Below, one piece after another: positions 7,254-13,058 of a stretch of DNA of 64,000 bases. The DNA comes from an uncultured Spirochaetota bacterium (GTDB lineage: Bacteria; Spirochaetota; Spirochaetia; SZUA-6; Fen-1364): the NCBI GenBank assembly GCA_963781885.1, contig CAWAHW010000002.1, positions 1,056,001 to 1,120,000 on the forward strand. Direction: 5' to 3'. The notes beneath the pieces were generated by a model. The model made no database searches and had not been told where the DNA came from. It was given only the letters and a program-made list of their open reading frames with translations. Position numbers and translations under genes: made by a program. How positions within the stretch are numbered: the stretch's first letter is position 1; each line of letters begins with the position of its first letter.

Positions 7254-8900
7254 ATGAGGAGAGTCATTCTTATATCGATTTTTGCTTTGTCTTTTTTCAT
7301 TGTGGATCTGACGGCGACTGCGGCCCCCGCATCGACCCATACCGTAACGTACGACGGAAACGGGAATACGGGCGGAAGCGTTCCGACGGACAGCAGCAAC
7401 TACATCCAGGGAGCGACTGCCGCCGTGTTAGGGGATAGTGGCAGCCTTGTGAAACGCAATTTCGCTTTGGCCGGATGGATGACGAAGATTGACGGAACCG
7501 GAACGAGTTATGCGGTGGGAGCTACTTTTAGGATGAGCCCCGAGGCGGTGACCTTGTACGCCCTGTGGGTACCTCTTTCTCTCAAATTCAGTAGTTCAAA
7601 GAAAAGCATCGTGATTACTGGATATGCAGTTGCGCCGAAAGGAGCCCTTACCATTCCAGCCGGTATCACCAGCATCGGGCAGTATGCCTTTCAAAATTGC
7701 AAGGGCTTGGTCAGCGTCATTATGCCCTCGAGCGTCACCAGCATCGGAATGGAGGCATTTTTCGATTGCGCGAGCCTGACAATGGTCACTCTCTCCGCCA
7801 ATGTCACCAGCATCGGGCAGTGTGCCTTCTGGAACTGCACGAGCCTATCCGACGTTACTATCCCCGCCGGCATCACCCGCGTGGCCGACGGCGTTTTCCG
7901 GGGCTGCGCGGGCCTGACCAGCATCACCATCCCTTCAGGCGTCACCACCATTGGCAGCGAGGCCTTTTCCGGCTGCGCGGGCCTGACCAGCGTCATTATC
8001 CCCGGGAGCGTCACAGGTATCGGCGAAGGTGCATTTAGCAAATGCACGATCCTCTCCAGCGTCGCTATCCCTTCCTTCGTCACGAGCATTGGCCGCTTTG
8101 CCTTTGAGGGCTGCACCAACCTGACTCGCGTCACCGTTGATCCAGCAAATGCATACTATGAATCCGACAACTCAGGTGTGTTGTTCACAAAGGGTGGTAC
8201 GACTTTGCTACAAGCTCCTGCAAAAATGAGTGGAGATTACGTCCTGCCGGCAAGCGTCATTCACATCGGCGACTTTGCCTTCCAAGAGTGCGCCAGCCTC
8301 ACCAGCGTCACTATCCCTTCCAGCGTCACGAGCATTGGCGAGAATGCCTTTCCGGGCCTCGCCAGCGTCCTTATACCCGCCAGCGTCACCAGCATCGGCG
8401 ACGGCGCGGTTTCGGGAAGCTTCGTCACTGTTGATCCCGCAAATGCATACTATGAATCCGATAGCTCTGGCGTGCTGTTTACAAAGGACGGTGCGACCCT
8501 AATACAAGTGCCAACCGAAATGAATGGAAGCTATGCCGTTCCCGCGAGCGTTACTGTCATCGATCAGTATGCCTTCGGCGGTTGCACGGGCTTGACCAGC
8601 GTCACAATCCCTGCCAGCGTCACCAGCATCGGCTACGGCAATTTTGCTAACTGCCGAGCCCTCACGAGCGTCACAATCCCTGCCAGCGTCACCAGCATCG
8701 GCGAAGGTGCATTCAATAACTGCACGCGATTGACGAGTGTTATCGTCAAAGCGACCATACCGCCGACACTCCCTTCGGGATCGTACGCATTTCATTTTGA
8801 GGCGAGCGGCTTTGTCATCAGAGTTCCCGCGGGAATTGTCGCTGCGTATAAGGCTGCTGCCGGGTGGAGCGATTACGTCTCAAAAATCGTTTCGCAGTAG
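7254..8900 (+). CDS. BspA/TpLRR leucine-rich-repeat surface protein with N-terminal Listeria-Bacteroides-type repeat
   Basis: Signal peptide; VTYDGNGNTGGSVP...AGW...TLYALW; many LTSVTIPxSVTSIGxxAFxxC repeats. Confidence 0.92.
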   Translation: MRRVILISIFALSFFIVDLTATAAPASTHTVTYDGNGNTGGSVPTDSSNYIQGATAAVLGDSGSLVKRNFALAGWMTKIDGTGTSYAVGATFRMSPEAVTLYALWVPLSLKFSSSKKSIVITGYAVAPKGALTIPAGITSIGQYAFQNCKGLVSVIMPSSVTSIGMEAFFDCASLTMVTLSANVTSIGQCAFWNCTSLSDVTIPAGITRVADGVFRGCAGLTSITIPSGVTTIGSEAFSGCAGLTSVIIPGSVTGIGEGAFSKCTILSSVAIPSFVTSIGRFAFEGCTNLTRVTVDPANAYYESDNSGVLFTKGGTTLLQAPAKMSGDYVLPASVIHIGDFAFQECASLTSVTIPSSVTSIGENAFPGLASVLIPASVTSIGDGAVSGSFVTVDPANAYYESDSSGVLFTKDGATLIQVPTEMNGSYAVPASVTVIDQYAFGGCTGLTSVTIPASVTSIGYGNFANCRALTSVTIPASVTSIGEGAFNNCTRLTSVIVKATIPPTLPSGSYAFHFEASGFVIRVPAGIVAAYKAAAGWSDYVSKIVSQ

Positions 8901-8991
8901 GCGAAACGGCGTCAACGCGATCCCGTGAGGCTGCCGGAGACCGTCATACCCGGCGAGCGAGGAACGGCCCGAAATAATCCCAAAATTTGTC

Positions 8992-9027
8992 TTTACAAAC
9001 AATCTAACAATATGTTAAAATATTAGA
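8992..9027 (+). promoter_or_regulatory. Promoter with overlapping palindromic operator (probable TetR autoregulation)
   Basis: TTTACA (8992), extended -10 TGtTAAAAT (9013-9021); TAACA-ATA-TGTTA palindrome (9005-9017). Confidence 0.55.
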
Positions 9028-9051
9028 ATCTTAGGTCGGCGGGAGGCTTGC

Positions 9052-9651
9052 ATGGCTTCTCACAGAAGAGACGAAATCCTGGCGGCTGCCGGAAACTGTT
9101 TTGCGAAGTTCGGCTTTGAAAAAACGACCCTCGATGATATTGGTGCGCTGGTCGGCGTGAACAAGGTGTCCTTGTATCATTACTTTAAGAACAAAGAAGC
9201 CATTTTTGTCGAACTGATCACCCGGGAAGCCGATGAGTATGGCCAATCGATTCACCGCAAGGTTGATGCCATCAAGTGCTGCAAGGACAAGATCCTCGCC
9301 TGGATAAAAGAAGGCTTTAGGTACAGCACGACGAACAGCATTCTAAACCAGTTCTCCATCGAATCGCTGGACAAGCTGACTCCTCAACTGGAGGAACTGA
9401 AGGTTTACGGGATGAAGAAAGGGATTGAATACATCGAGACAATCCTGATCGACGGCCAGCAAAAGAACGAGGTCATTGCCTGCGATGCACGCCGGGTTGC
9501 GGAATCAATTCAGAACGTCGTGTATGCGATAAAAGATCAGGCGTATCATCAGGCAAGATCCAATCCCGACAGGAAGATGGATTTTGGCAAACTGGTCGAC
9601 GATGTGGTTTTTGCCGTCTCGCTCATACTTGACGGGATTACTTCAAAATAG
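9052..9651 (+). CDS. TetR/AcrR family transcriptional regulator
   Basis: RRDEILAAA...GFEKTTLDDIG...SLYHYFKNKEAIF HTH. Confidence 0.93.
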   Translation: MASHRRDEILAAAGNCFAKFGFEKTTLDDIGALVGVNKVSLYHYFKNKEAIFVELITREADEYGQSIHRKVDAIKCCKDKILAWIKEGFRYSTTNSILNQFSIESLDKLTPQLEELKVYGMKKGIEYIETILIDGQQKNEVIACDARRVAESIQNVVYAIKDQAYHQARSNPDRKMDFGKLVDDVVFAVSLILDGITSK

Positions 9652-9663
9652 CCGGGGGACATT

Positions 9664-9816
9664 ATGGCAGAACTGGATTTGGAGTTTGCGCGCCTGCTTG
9701 ACGTGGAGAAAACCCCTCCCGGCAAACTGGCGGAATATGGCGCGGCAGTTGTCATGGCGCGCCTGTGGCCCGGGGACGTCGCCGATCTCCTGAGGATTTG
9801 GATCGAGGAGGAGTAG
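9664..9816 (+). CDS. 50-aa protein resembling the FliF C-terminal FliG-binding tail
   Basis: Manually translated MAELDLEFARLLDVEKTPPGKLAEYGAAVVMARLWPGDVADLLRIWIEEE; GGGGG before ATG; fills the tetR-fliG gap. Confidence 0.65.
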   Translation: MAELDLEFARLLDVEKTPPGKLAEYGAAVVMARLWPGDVADLLRIWIEEE

Positions 9817-9819
9817 CGC

Positions 9820-10923
9820 ATGGCAAAACAGGCAGCAAGGGCCGCCGCCGCCCCGCAGGACAAGGCAGGAGCAGGAGCGACGCCACAGGCAAGGCGCGAA
9901 GGCACGAAAGCCGCAGCGTCCAAGAAAGCGCTCACCGGCAGACAAAAGGCGGCGGTGTTCCTCGTCACCCTCGGTTCCGATATAGCCTCCGAGATCTTCA
10001 AGCATCTGCGCGAGGACGAAATCGAGCAACTGACTTTCGAGGTCGCGCGTCTGGAGAGCATCGCCCCCCAGGAGCGCGATGAGGTGCTCCTTGAGTTTCA
10101 CGAGCTGATGATGGCCCAGGAGTTCATCTCCACGGGCGGAATCGACTACGCGCGCGAGCTTTTGGAAAAGTCCCTGGGAGGACAGAAGGCGGTCGATATC
10201 ATCAACCGCCTGACAAGCTCGCTGCAGGTGCGGCCATTCGATTTCGTTCGACGCACGGACCCGTCGCACCTTCTGAACTTGATCCAGCAGGAGCATCCCC
10301 AGACAATCGCCCTGATCCTGGCGTATCTCGAGCCGCAGAAGGCTTCCGTCATCCTCGGCAGCCTCCCGCACGAGATACAGTCCGACGTCGCGAAGCGCAT
10401 CGCCACGATGGACCAGACCTCTCCCGAGGTGCTCCGCGAGGTGGAGCGCGTACTGGAAAAGAAGCTCTCCAGCATGTCATCGGAGGACTACACCGCGGCG
10501 GGCGGAGTGGAGAACATCGTGGACATTCTCAACATGGTCGACCGATCGACGGAGAAGACCATCGTGGAAGCGCTGGAGGAAGATGATCCCGAGCTTGCGG
10601 AGGAGATCAAGAAGCGCATGTTCGTCTTCGAGGATATCGTGCTCCTGGACGATCGCGCCATCCAGAAGGTCATTCGCGAGGTGGATACCGCGGAGCTCGC
10701 CAAGGCCCTGAAGAGCGTGGACTCCGAGGTGCAGGACAAGATCTACCGCAACATCTCCAAACGCGCCTCCACGCTTCTCAAGGAAGACATGGACTACATG
10801 GGCCCGGTCCGGCTGAAAGACGTGGAAGAGGCGCAGCAGCGCATCGTTGCCGTCATCCGCAAGCTGGAAGAGCAGGGGGAAATCGTCGTGGCGCGCGCCG
10901 GAGAGGAAGAGCTGGTGGTATGA
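9820..10923 (+). CDS. fliG: Flagellar motor switch protein FliG (orphan copy)
   Basis: LTGRQKAAVFL, GGIDYA, EHPQTIALIL, MFVFEDI, MGPVRLKDVEEAQQ. Confidence 0.95.
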   Translation: MAKQAARAAAAPQDKAGAGATPQARREGTKAAASKKALTGRQKAAVFLVTLGSDIASEIFKHLREDEIEQLTFEVARLESIAPQERDEVLLEFHELMMAQEFISTGGIDYARELLEKSLGGQKAVDIINRLTSSLQVRPFDFVRRTDPSHLLNLIQQEHPQTIALILAYLEPQKASVILGSLPHEIQSDVAKRIATMDQTSPEVLREVERVLEKKLSSMSSEDYTAAGGVENIVDILNMVDRSTEKTIVEALEEDDPELAEEIKKRMFVFEDIVLLDDRAIQKVIREVDTAELAKALKSVDSEVQDKIYRNISKRASTLLKEDMDYMGPVRLKDVEEAQQRIVAVIRKLEEQGEIVVARAGEEELVV

Positions 10924-11441
10924 TGGTCGACTATAGAAAGCTCACCGAGCCATCGGTCCAGGTTGCGGAGGCTCTCACCCGCTGGGAGAACGACCCGGAG
11001 CTTGTTCCATTCACGCGGTATTGCAAGAACCAGGAGGAATGGGAAAGAAAAAAGATCGTCAGCCCCGACGGCCTTGCCGAGCGGATGCGGCGTCAGACGA
11101 TCTACCTCGTCTATCTGGACGACCATTTGATCGGCGAGCTGAGCTATGAAATTGACCCCGCGCTTTTGTACAAGAAGGAAAAAGGAACCGCCTGGATAGG
11201 CATTGTCCTCGGCGAGGAGATCGGGCGCGGCAGGGGAATCGGAGGCGGCGCGATGCAGTACCTGGAGGATCAGATCAGGATCGCCGGCTACAAGAGAATT
11301 GAGCTGGGCGTTTTCGAGTTCAATGCCAGGGCTAGAGCACTGTACCGCAAAGTTGGCTACGTCGAGATCGGCAGGATCCAGGCCTTCACCTGGTGGCAGG
11401 GAAAAATGTGGCAGGACATCCGGATGGAAAAACTCCTGTAA
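10920..11441 (+). CDS. GNAT family N-acetyltransferase (RimJ/RimL-like)
   Basis: RGRGIG acetyl-CoA motif; VFEFNARARALYRKVGY; ATGA overlap with fliG. Confidence 0.88.
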   Translation: MMVDYRKLTEPSVQVAEALTRWENDPELVPFTRYCKNQEEWERKKIVSPDGLAERMRRQTIYLVYLDDHLIGELSYEIDPALLYKKEKGTAWIGIVLGEEIGRGRGIGGGAMQYLEDQIRIAGYKRIELGVFEFNARARALYRKVGYVEIGRIQAFTWWQGKMWQDIRMEKLL

Positions 11442-11477
11442 GCCGCTCTGCCGATGCGCGCGGTCGAGCGTGCATTC

Positions 11478-13058
11478 TCATCCCTCCCCGTTCGCGACGA
11501 AGTTGTTGTAGTAGTATTCCAGCCCGTCGATCAGCGCCTGCCAGGATGCCTCGATGATGTTTTCATCCACCCCGACCGTGTCCCACGTCTGCTCGCCGTC
11601 GGAAGTCGTAATGAAGACGCGGACGCGCGCCGCCGTTGCCCGCTCTGGATCCAACACGCGCACCCGGTAATCGGTGAGCTTCAGCTTTTTCAAAAAGGGG
11701 TGGAGGGGAAGGAGGGCGTCGCGGAGCGCGCCATTGAGCGTATCGACGGGGCCGTCGCCGACGGCCGCGCCCATGAGCAGGTTGCCGTTGGCGCGGACAA
11801 AGAGCCGGCCCACGGTCTTCGCCGGTGTGCCGACCGACTTGTAGTTCTCCAGGTGGTAGTTGCTGAGCTCCAGGAGCGATTTGTACTGGCCGAGGGCGCG
11901 CCGGATCACAAGATCGAATGACGCCTCGGCTGCCTCGTACTCGAAACCCTTTTCCTCCAGCTCCTTGAGCTCGACGAGGAGCCGCGCGACGATTTCCGAT
12001 GACTTCTCGAAGTCGCCATACCGGGCCATCTTTTTCACGATCGTGGATTTGCCGGCGAGCTCGGAAAGCAGGACGCGGCGCTCATTACCCACCAGGGCCC
12101 CGTCCACGTGCTCCATGAGGCGCGGCGCCTTGCTGATCACGTCGGCATGCTGTCCCGCCTTGTGGGAGAAGGCGGCCTCGCCGACGTAGGGCTGGCGCTT
12201 GTCGGGGATGATGTTCGCTTTCTCCGCGACGAAGCGCGAAAGCGCGGTGAGAAGCGCGAGGTTGGCGCAGGCAGCGGCACCGTCATTCATCTTCAGGCAC
12301 AGGGTGGGGATCAGCGTGCAGAGATTCATGTTCCCGCAGCGCTCGCCCCAGCCGTTGATCGTGCCCTGCACGTGCACGGCGCCGTGCGCGATGCCGGCGA
12401 GCGTGTTGGCGATGGCATTGCCGGTGTCGTCGTGGAAGTGCACCCCGAAAGCACCCAGCTCCTTCATCGGCAGCTCGGAGATGATGCGGGCCACCTCCGA
12501 CGGGAGGGTGCCGCCGTTGGTGTCGCAGAGCACGAGGCAATCGGCGCCCGCGTCGCGGGCCGCGCGCAGCGCGGCAAGGGCATACGCGGGGTCATCCTTG
12601 TAGCCGTCGAAAAAATGCTCCAGATCGTAGAAGACCTCGCGCCCCGCCGCCTTCAGGGCGGCGAGTGAATCCGCGATCATGCGGAGATTCTCCTCTTCCG
12701 TCGTCTGGAGCACCTCGCGCACGTGGGCCTTCCAGGTCTTTCCCACCACGATGACGGTGGGGGTTTCCGCCTGCAGGAGCGCCGTGATCTGCGGATCCGT
12801 ATCGGCCTTGCCCATGGGCCTGCGCGTCGAACCGAATGCCACGACCTTCGCGTGGCGAAGGCTCTCCTTGCGCATCCGCTGGAAGAACTCGCTCTCCTTG
12901 CGGTTGGAAAGGGGAAAACCGCCCTCGATGTAGTCGATGCCCAACTCGTCCATGGCCAGCGCGATCTGGACCTTGTCCTCCAGCGTATAGCTGATGCCCT
13001 GGCCCTGCATGCCGTCCCGTAACGTCGTGTCATAGATGACCGTGCGCCGGCCGCTCAT
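11478..13058 (-). CDS. cimA: Citramalate synthase
   Basis: YDTTLRDGMQG, IEGGFPLSN, GKTWKAHV, EHFFDGYK, NIIEASWQAL. Confidence 0.88.
   Translation of the reverse strand: MSGRRTVIYDTTLRDGMQGQGISYTLEDKVQIALAMDELGIDYIEGGFPLSNRKESEFFQRMRKESLRHAKVVAFGSTRRPMGKADTDPQITALLQAETPTVIVVGKTWKAHVREVLQTTEEENLRMIADSLAALKAAGREVFYDLEHFFDGYKDDPAYALAALRAARDAGADCLVLCDTNGGTLPSEVARIISELPMKELGAFGVHFHDDTGNAIANTLAGIAHGAVHVQGTINGWGERCGNMNLCTLIPTLCLKMNDGAAACANLALLTALSRFVAEKANIIPDKRQPYVGEAAFSHKAGQHADVISKAPRLMEHVDGALVGNERRVLLSELAGKSTIVKKMARYGDFEKSSEIVARLLVELKELEEKGFEYEAAEASFDLVIRRALGQYKSLLELSNYHLENYKSVGTPAKTVGRLFVRANGNLLMGAAVGDGPVDTLNGALRDALLPLHPFLKKLKLTDYRVRVLDPERATAARVRVFITTSDGEQTWDTVGVDENIIEASWQALIDGLEYYYNNFVANGEG

Follow-up and report, generated by a model that had tools for sequence, protein, structure and literature searches.

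The question raised by this locus is why a free open reading frame (ORF) of only 50 amino acids, whose C-terminus resembles the tail of the flagellar ring protein FliF, should lie directly ahead of an extra copy of the rotor gene fliG and behind a gene for a TetR-family repressor. The locus lies in the window, by which we mean the whole 64,000-nucleotide (nt) stretch analysed here (contig CAWAHW010000002.1 of assembly GCA_963781885.1, from an uncultured Spirochaetota bacterium), and the window itself belongs to a 1.56-Mb contig of a draft genome (G000) comprising seven contigs, with a completeness of 92.6%. The small frame, referred to below as the mini-ORF (9664-9816, plus strand), ends in AVVMARLWPGDVADLLRIWIEEE, and its TAG stop codon is placed 3 nt ahead of the ATG at 9820 with which the accessory fliG begins (9820-10923, plus strand, 367 amino acids). 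The answer that we hold to be probable is that the operon provides a functional spare FliG under TetR control and that the mini-ORF is a remnant from the boundary of a duplication, possibly kept as a leader ORF coupled to fliG.

A first-pass annotation of the window had listed the positions and tight packing of these ORFs, including the mini-ORF, which the ORF track had missed, and its 3-nt distance from fliG, and all of this was confirmed. Its statement that no full fliF, fliE or fliH is found nearby agrees with a tblastn search of the window, which gave no homologue of flgB, flgC, fliE, fliF, fliH, fliI or fliJ. The canonical fliF-fliG-fliH set sits elsewhere in the genome, in a flgB-type operon (flgB-fliE-fliF-fliG-fliH), where the single full fliF (C5:49870-51567) is followed after a 3-nt gap by the canonical fliG and then by fliH, fliI and fliJ. 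The window fliG is an extra copy beside this separate locus and, with a divergent FliG1-like gene (C2:553768-554748; 200 bits, sharing about 32% identity with the window copy) counted in, the third FliG of the genome.

Comparison of the two loci by blastn gives one continuous alignment of 1198 columns at 83.6% identity, in which window positions 9753-10923 are matched to the 3' end of fliF and the whole of the canonical fliG. About 64-70 nt of fliF are included, the likeness ends exactly at the fliG stop codon, and outside these limits neither flank resembles the canonical locus. Judged by this alignment, the likeness of the mini-ORF to the FliF tail is true homology and not chance. Since synonymous divergence (dS, by Nei-Gojobori counts, as for the nonsynonymous dN below) is alike in both parts, 0.62 for the fliF tail and 0.66 for the core of fliG, the two were copied in one event. 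The accessory FliG shares about 90% of its amino acids with the canonical FliG of the same genome, scores 487.6 bits against TIGR00207 (cut-off 226.7) and possesses the N, M and C domains (FliG_N 3.8e-45, FliG_M 5.4e-37, FliG_C 6e-46). A DNA tree of 31 fliG cores places it inside the genus, in an unresolved 13-member subclade that also holds the genome's own canonical copy, although its branch there is long (0.17; median 0.067). On the preferred reading the window fliG arose by duplication of the housekeeping gene within this lineage. Borrelia burgdorferi likewise has FliG1 and FliG2 paralogues with roles described in PMC7225975, and the resemblance consists in the possession of more than one FliG, one in a flgB-type operon and others elsewhere, with a FliG1-like gene here too; unlike the Borrelia pair, the window copy is a third one, young, about 90% identical to the housekeeping protein, placed behind a TetR gene and accompanied by a fliF remnant.

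The accessory gene has been kept intact. Its 333 core codons contain neither stops nor indels, and comparison with the canonical fliG gives a dN of 0.034 and a dN/dS ratio (omega) of 0.05, against 0.007-0.024 for canonical fliG between species. All substitutions in the protein are conservative, and the EHPQ, GG, MFVF and RNxSxRA...ED columns are retained; in an alignment of 19 FliGs (A2), the columns that are invariant with the window copy included are E158, H159, P160, Q161, G228, G229, M267, F268, F270, R315, E322, D323 and R331. We take the EHPQ motif of the M domain, the Gly-Gly linker, the MFxF hinge and the charged torque-helix residues to be signature motifs of FliG. By these measures the accessory fliG is under strong purifying selection, which argues that it encodes a working rotor or switch protein, and from the low omega and the conserved interfaces we infer that the accessory FliG assembles into the C ring of the motor.

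The mini-ORF is of a different composition: of its 50 residues, no more than the final 23 derive from FliF. Codons 28-50 and the stop (9745-9816, plus strand, the blastn alignment with the canonical locus beginning at 9753) correspond to the last 23 codons and stop of fliF, with 69% nucleotide identity and 13 of 23 residues identical to the genome's own FliF tail, against 26%, which is the random level, for the first 27 codons. These first 27 residues gave no gapped protein or DNA alignment to FliF better than shuffles (their score against the FliF C-region was attained by 76% of 2000 shuffles, and that against complete FliF by 44% of 500), and nothing like them was found in the rest of the genome nor, by eye, in the first genes after other TetR orthologues. 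The mini-ORF matched no Pfam or NCBIfam family, and its best value in a protein atlas, 0.81, gave no usable lead. Its frame is open and is preceded by GGGGG at 9654-9658, 5 nt before the ATG. The mini-ORF is, as read from these comparisons, a chimera in which a stretch of about 81 nt unrelated to fliF, giving GGGGG-N5-ATG, is fused in frame to the copied end of fliF. At 50 amino acids it is not a full MS-ring protein with the transmembrane segments and ring-building domains of FliF (TIGR00206) but a fragment derivative; FliF-C consists of two helices according to PMC8956890, and as only the second has a homologous counterpart in the mini-ORF, the two-helix unit of the solved complexes is not present.

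The position of the boundary can be accounted for by the requirements of fliG itself. The copied end of fliF holds the native Shine-Dalgarno sequence of fliG, GAGGAGGAG, at 9805-9813, and the copied segment would have begun some 70 nt ahead of fliG, within the final 23 fliF codons, for the reason that this is where the ribosome-binding site of fliG and the 3-nt junction are situated. The unrelated stretch upstream would then have contributed an in-frame ATG and a Shine-Dalgarno sequence.

Selection on the two copied parts has differed, dN being ten-fold apart (0.36 in the tail and 0.034 in fliG). Against the genome's own fliF tail the 23 FliF-derived codons show an omega of 0.59, or 0.65 if the last four codons, which carry the Shine-Dalgarno sequence, are left out, and nucleotide identity by codon position is flat in the tail (0.70/0.70/0.65) and strongly uneven in fliG (0.95/0.98/0.69). 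The FliF tail, NMAREHPEDVAQLIRTWLVEE, is itself highly conserved, its last 21 residues being identical in 15 of 16 same-genus sequences, with a single R to K change in the other. When 29 FliF tails were extracted (two of them, L052 and L065, are mis-read frames), eight positions were found at which 26-28 of the 29 carry one and the same residue and at which the mini-ORF carries another (N30V, E34L, H35W, E37G, Q41D, I43L, T45I and L47I); V48E is a further change. The FliF-derived part is, on these counts, no longer held to the strict FliF tail sequence. Nor are the changes compensated on the side of FliG, because the columns of A2 that hold the most closely contacting FliG-N residues of the model vary hardly or not at all.

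The first-pass annotation had proposed a functional FliF-tail mimic. In this reading a peptide made together with the accessory FliG would fill the groove of FliG-N, whether as a chaperone of this domain or in order to hold the accessory or the housekeeping FliG off the MS ring, so that induction by a ligand would remodel or stop the motor. We consider this doubtful, and the eight replaced residues, facing unchanged contact residues, and the homology of the second helix only are two of the reasons. Several observations nevertheless weigh against treating the tail as a mere relic. Six of the seven residues common to the spirochaete and Thermotoga (5TDY) FliF tails, i.e. P, D, A, R, W and E, are kept in the mini-ORF, as is the hydrophobic pattern DVAxLLRIWI, and 7 of the 16 other tail positions are kept as well (about 0.08, one-sided, in a Fisher test done by hand). 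A neutral simulation at the observed nucleotide identity gives probabilities of 0.022 for keeping at least six of the seven universal residues and of 0.115 for at least 13 identical residues, and with the dS of fliG as the clock the latter falls to 0.002, although the statistic was picked after the data had been seen and concerns 23 codons only; the probability that the simulated tail acquires no stop is 0.59. Omega in the tail is 0.59 and not 1, and the mini-ORF has an open frame and a Shine-Dalgarno sequence of its own (GGGGG, 5-nt spacer). Residual constraint on the tail is thus suggested, not decisively.

A further point in favour of the mimic comes from structure prediction. A complex model of the mini-ORF peptide with residues 33-145 of the accessory FliG, built with A2, docks the peptide on FliG-N with a score of 0.62, the best of three controls reaching 0.03; of 80 solved complexes 58 attain the mark, as do 2 of 110 mismatched pairs, and both counts are rough because an alignment of our own was used. 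Model runs agree in at least 86% of contacts, and the predicted local distance difference test (pLDDT) value of the partner is at least 64. The modelled interface covers peptide residues 21-47 and 49-50, the tightest contacts being those of residues 36-47 with FliG 40-48, 59-63 and 93. FliF-C and FliG-N are described as co-folding and needing each other in PMC8956890, which also favours the mimic. The model may, however, pass through memory of the solved FliF-C/FliG-N complexes (5TDY from Thermotoga maritima, 5WUJ from Helicobacter pylori), reflecting likeness to them and not retained binding. The mini-ORF tail is homologous to these FliF tails by descent, it aligns to those of 5TDY and of a spirochaete-like FliF chain (12dr_A) through FliF, it keeps P, D-V-A, L, R and W, and it is modelled in the same groove of FliG-N, but it is a free 50-residue ORF and not the end of a 566-residue membrane ring protein. 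On structural grounds the mimic thus keeps some plausibility, but nothing in the model points to a privately co-evolved pair, since the accessory and the housekeeping FliG have the same groove. A literature search found neither a natural stand-alone FliF-C peptide nor a TetR-linked fliG. Should the peptide be produced and have retained its binding to FliG-N, it would represent a counterpart in nature of the FliF-C peptides with which structural biologists work.

Distribution among relatives also speaks against the mimic. None of 40 relatives compared, 20 of which are of the same genus, has a stand-alone mini-ORF; matches fall chiefly on the ends of full-length FliF frames (about 570 amino acids), the others being weak (E 0.07 or worse) and located in short or unrelated frames. 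Two short-frame matches to the tail region, in G015:C3 and G002:C47 (E 0.07-0.23), were dismissed, as they are not near any FliG match. Among 5.8 billion proteins (searched at lengths of 27-88 amino acids) the mini-ORF matches only itself. It is also missing from the older TetR-FliG module of the relative G041, where the only other full-length TetR-linked FliG that we found has no FliF-tail ORF. Of the first-pass interpretation, the FliF-tail identity, the extra fliG and the TetR operon are supported, and a model docks the peptide on FliG-N. Conservation and constraint at the level of FliF are not supported, and the alternative it had named, a passive relic of a fliF3'-fliG duplication, fits better than the mimic.

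Further evidence on the age and fate of the duplicate may be obtained from G005, a species of the same subclade, which is syntenic with the window from 10829 onward. It holds the final 31 fliG codons, the ATGA overlap, the gene for a GNAT acetyltransferase (77% amino acid identity) and a cimA-like gene, and upstream of the break there is an unrelated PAS histidine kinase, a 963-amino-acid frame on the minus strand (L072, i.e. G005:C12, 3722-6610) whose 3' end abuts the break. The stump shares 90% of its nucleotides with the window copy and 77-83% with canonical copies, and because it is nearest to the window copy the duplicate predates the split between G000 and G005 and was destroyed later in G005, the break marking the rearrangement responsible. 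The dS values agree with this order (0.66 between duplicate and canonical copy, 0.37 between G000 and G005). The module was dispensable in G005, and its loss there is another point against the mimic.

This loss could also be read as a sign that the whole module is decaying junk, left by a recent, accidental and functionless duplication. The long branch of the duplicate would fit such a view, as would the fact that no second canonical-like FliG outside the flagellar operon was found in the 40 relatives. Two extra FliG C-terminal fragments examined there (G004:C217 and G024:C76) are followed by fliH and were rejected as duplicate remnants, being canonical loci cut by contig ends. Against junk stand the low omega of fliG maintained over a dS of 0.66, the intact core with its signature motifs, an age greater than that of the G000/G005 split, the conserved TetR operator and the independent TetR-linked FliG of G041, with an omega of 0.02 at a dS of 1.74, and we therefore regard it as very unlikely. 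Less probable still is an assembly artefact, i.e. a chimeric join that has placed a fliF'-fliG copy in a foreign context, a misassembled junction being what the first-pass annotation had named as grounds for giving up its proposal. The genome is an incomplete draft, but 16% of the nucleotides are different between this copy and the canonical one, the copy lies deep within its contig, and the fliG-GNAT-cimA junction recurs in a second species, G005. Near-identical pieces in a public DNA run cover 9188-9368, 9374-9524 and 9685-9878 at a depth of about 3, the last as a 194-nt contig that bridges the junction of mini-ORF and fliG, with a sole difference, 9778 G>A, that would give V39I in the mini-ORF; this run may be the source sample, in which case it is not independent.

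The preferred reading, a working spare FliG with a boundary relic ahead of it, leaves a role for the mini-ORF at the level of translation. It most likely persists as a short leader, the translation of which stops 3 nt short of fliG and may feed ribosomes to that gene by coupling; the peptide itself is probably not a selected FliF-tail mimic, though if made it may still bind FliG-N. Translation of the mini-ORF and its coupling to fliG would follow from the layout, which is that of coupled leader ORFs, in that only 3 nt separate the stop from the start that follows and the last codons of the upstream ORF include the Shine-Dalgarno sequence of the downstream one, as at the native fliF-fliG junction. 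Unlike in those systems, coupling is here suggested by geometry alone, no conserved occluding RNA structure having been found: predicted folds at the tail/fliG junction are no more stable than those of shuffles (z +1.15 in the window, +0.76 at the canonical locus) and therefore give no support for a hairpin that occludes the Shine-Dalgarno sequence. Understood in this way, the mini-ORF would offer a clear illustration from nature of a small ORF newly formed out of the end of the adjacent gene, at a duplication boundary that translational coupling has set.

Control of the module would be exerted at a single promoter. A sigma-70-like promoter (8992-9021, plus strand) has its -35 box TTTACA at 8992-8997, an 18-nt spacer and a TG-extended -10 box TAAAAT at 9016-9021, with 10 of 12 matches; it is the sole plus-strand promoter-like site within 8700-11700, so that there is no internal one on that strand, and the region contains two promoter-like sites where shuffles lead one to expect 0.8. 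The arrangement TTGACw...TATAAT is likewise present upstream of orthologous TetR genes. The -10 box is overlapped by a putative TetR operator at 9003-9027 (no strand assigned), the inverted repeat TCTAACA-N11-TATTAGA, which was identified by eye and by comparison between loci, the automated inverted-repeat search (6-nt seed) not having reported it as its arms are interrupted. Its strict form, TCTAAyN-N11-NrTTAGA, overlaps the -10 box in the window and recurs upstream of other TetR relatives, in 10 of the 15 regions examined, with a constant spacing of 11 nt and at 18-31 nt ahead of the start codon, so the palindromic operator that the first-pass annotation had seen at the promoter holds up as a conserved, if putative, element.

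The TetR-family gene follows (9052-9651, plus strand, 199 amino acids; Pfam TetR_N, PF00440, 7e-15 over residues 9-55), and the last gene is that of the GNAT acetyltransferase (10920-11441, plus strand; Pfam Acetyltransf_1, PF00583, 1e-13), the start of which overlaps the fliG stop (ATGA). Distances between tetR, mini-ORF, fliG and the GNAT gene are 12, 3 and -4 nt, all four are preceded by a Shine-Dalgarno-like sequence, and we infer that they are co-transcribed as a four-cistron operon from one autoregulated TetR promoter. A ligand releasing TetR would then gate the supply of accessory FliG. Neither protein has an NCBIfam equivalog at cut-off: the best for TetR are SACE_7040 with 49 bits (cut-off 250) and Bacillus-type FadR with 43.9 bits, and for the GNAT it is ArsN1 with 41.5 bits (cut-off 170). 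The layout agrees with that of autoregulated operons of the TetR/QacR/FadR type in the N-terminal helix-turn-helix, the palindromic putative operator over the repressor's own -10 box and the same-strand cargo downstream, the difference lying in the cargo, which is in this case a protein of the flagellar rotor. Spirochaetes are known to possess additional FliG paralogues; to our knowledge, how their supply is controlled is not known. The part first assigned to the GNAT, modification of the inducer or of motor parts, found no support, as its orthologues occur without a FliG nearby in G018 (57%) and beside no more than the fliG stump in G005.

TetR orthologues are rare: one was seen in only 3 of the 401 genomes sampled from the class, and in 2 of the 40 relatives at E 1e-15 or better. 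Scanning of genome and metagenome contigs gave 14 distinct TetR loci with the window included (TetR identity of at least 49%, or E 1e-60 or better), after identical records had been merged (L073 with L102 and L103, L078 with L104, L107 with L108, and L080 with L067 and L173). Their downstream same-strand cargo is FliG-type in 5 of the 14, a short-chain dehydrogenase in six and neither in three. Together with the partial FadR-like match of the repressor, the dehydrogenase cargo hints weakly at a lipophilic or acyl-CoA-like ligand. The FliG-type cargoes are those of the window, of G041, where the order is TetR-ankyrin-FliG with a full-length FliG, and of L074, L080 and L106, where an 85-amino-acid protein consists of FliG_C only (Pfam FliG_C 6.7e-8). 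G041 also has a canonical fliF-fliG-fliH locus, to the FliG of which its TetR-linked FliG is closest (dN 0.035), the homology of this duplicate beginning about 22 codons into fliG. FliG-type cargo linked to TetR is, in this set of loci, recurrent, and the FliF tail lies outside the recurrent set. What is new here is the presence of TetR orthologues that share one operator upstream of FliG or FliG_C-only genes, at 5 of 14 loci, which suggests either that the rotor is tuned in response to a ligand or that regulators have been derived from FliG. The G+C content of the TetR gene is 0.45-0.50 and that of fliG 0.58-0.66, which is compatible with separate, possibly horizontal, origins of repressor and cargo. 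Over the region as a whole, 9000-9650 lies 10-15 G+C points below 9700-11400 (fliG-GNAT) and below the flanking genes.

The FliG_C-only proteins raise the further idea of TetR-gated rotor decoys, in which the FliF-tail peptide, translated along with the induced FliG, would cap its N-domain and so prevent it from docking on the MS ring, leaving this FliG as a soluble sink for switch or stator partners, the 85-residue proteins being a stripped-down version of the same device. We regard this as improbable; if it were true, these proteins and a MazE/AbrB-like fusion of the genome itself (below) would form an unrecognised family of small FliG-derived regulators linking the sensing of small molecules to motility or transcription. 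EpsE and YcgR are brakes or clutches of the motor. Only under the decoy idea would there be a likeness to them (PMC3000366), namely an induced soluble protein interfering with the rotor-stator or rotor-MS-ring interface; there is no sequence relation, and the putative effector would here be a copy of a rotor protein or a FliF/FliG fragment.

The stand-alone FliG C-terminal proteins of about 85 amino acids occur behind TetR orthologues in three lineages (L074:5582-5836; L080:4617-4871, equal to L067:2114-2371; L106:2318-2410, cut by the contig end) and start exactly at the M of the MFxF hinge. A word-based homologue search with one of them returned only itself. A profile of two sequences (FliG_C85), searched among 1.84 billion, gave 387 representatives that reach an E-value of 1e-3 and 52 that reach 1e-10, the top matches being mostly 75-90 amino acids long and true FliGs appearing only at about 1e-6. 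The conserved motif is D.EIQ.WL....L..AL......V....RNMS..A, and the charges of the torque helix are not conserved.

The genome G000 itself encodes a 140-amino-acid protein (G000:C1:511488-511910, i.e. L004:1336-1758) with a weak MazE/AbrB-like N-terminus (E 0.0016, below cut-off) and a FliG_C-like domain (6.8e-12), which hints that FliG_C-like domains partner with DNA-binding regulators. Next to it lies a dienelactone hydrolase gene (L004:1769-2587), and the same hydrolase family follows the distant TetR relatives L081 and L082. Regions resembling the middle and C-terminal parts of FliG (45-58% identity to residues of about 132-364) were also seen within open frames of 520-730 amino acids in several relatives (G023:C1:1092659-1093633, G018:C4:275727-276419, G004:C199:3511-4191, G026:C430:1854-2531, G019:C20:19242-19931 and others), and these long frames look like FliG_MC domains fused to a larger protein.

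Some minor observations may be added. In the region of window position 10249 the two TetR-linked FliGs, those of the window and of G041, read DFVRR, whereas the 17 canonical FliGs of A2 all read DFIRR, which may be coincidence. A 123-amino-acid ankyrin-repeat protein (63-66% identity between loci) recurs in loci of TetR orthologues (L078:4626-4997, L076:5972-6337 and L074:6984-7349), and in G041 it lies between TetR and the accessory FliG. The operon is flanked downstream by a convergent citramalate/isopropylmalate-synthase-like (cimA-like) gene, and directly upstream by a gene (7254-8900) for a secreted-looking BspA-type leucine-rich-repeat protein of 548 amino acids with an N-terminal Listeria-Bacteroides repeat; a terminator-like hairpin was reported at 8888-8908 on the minus strand.

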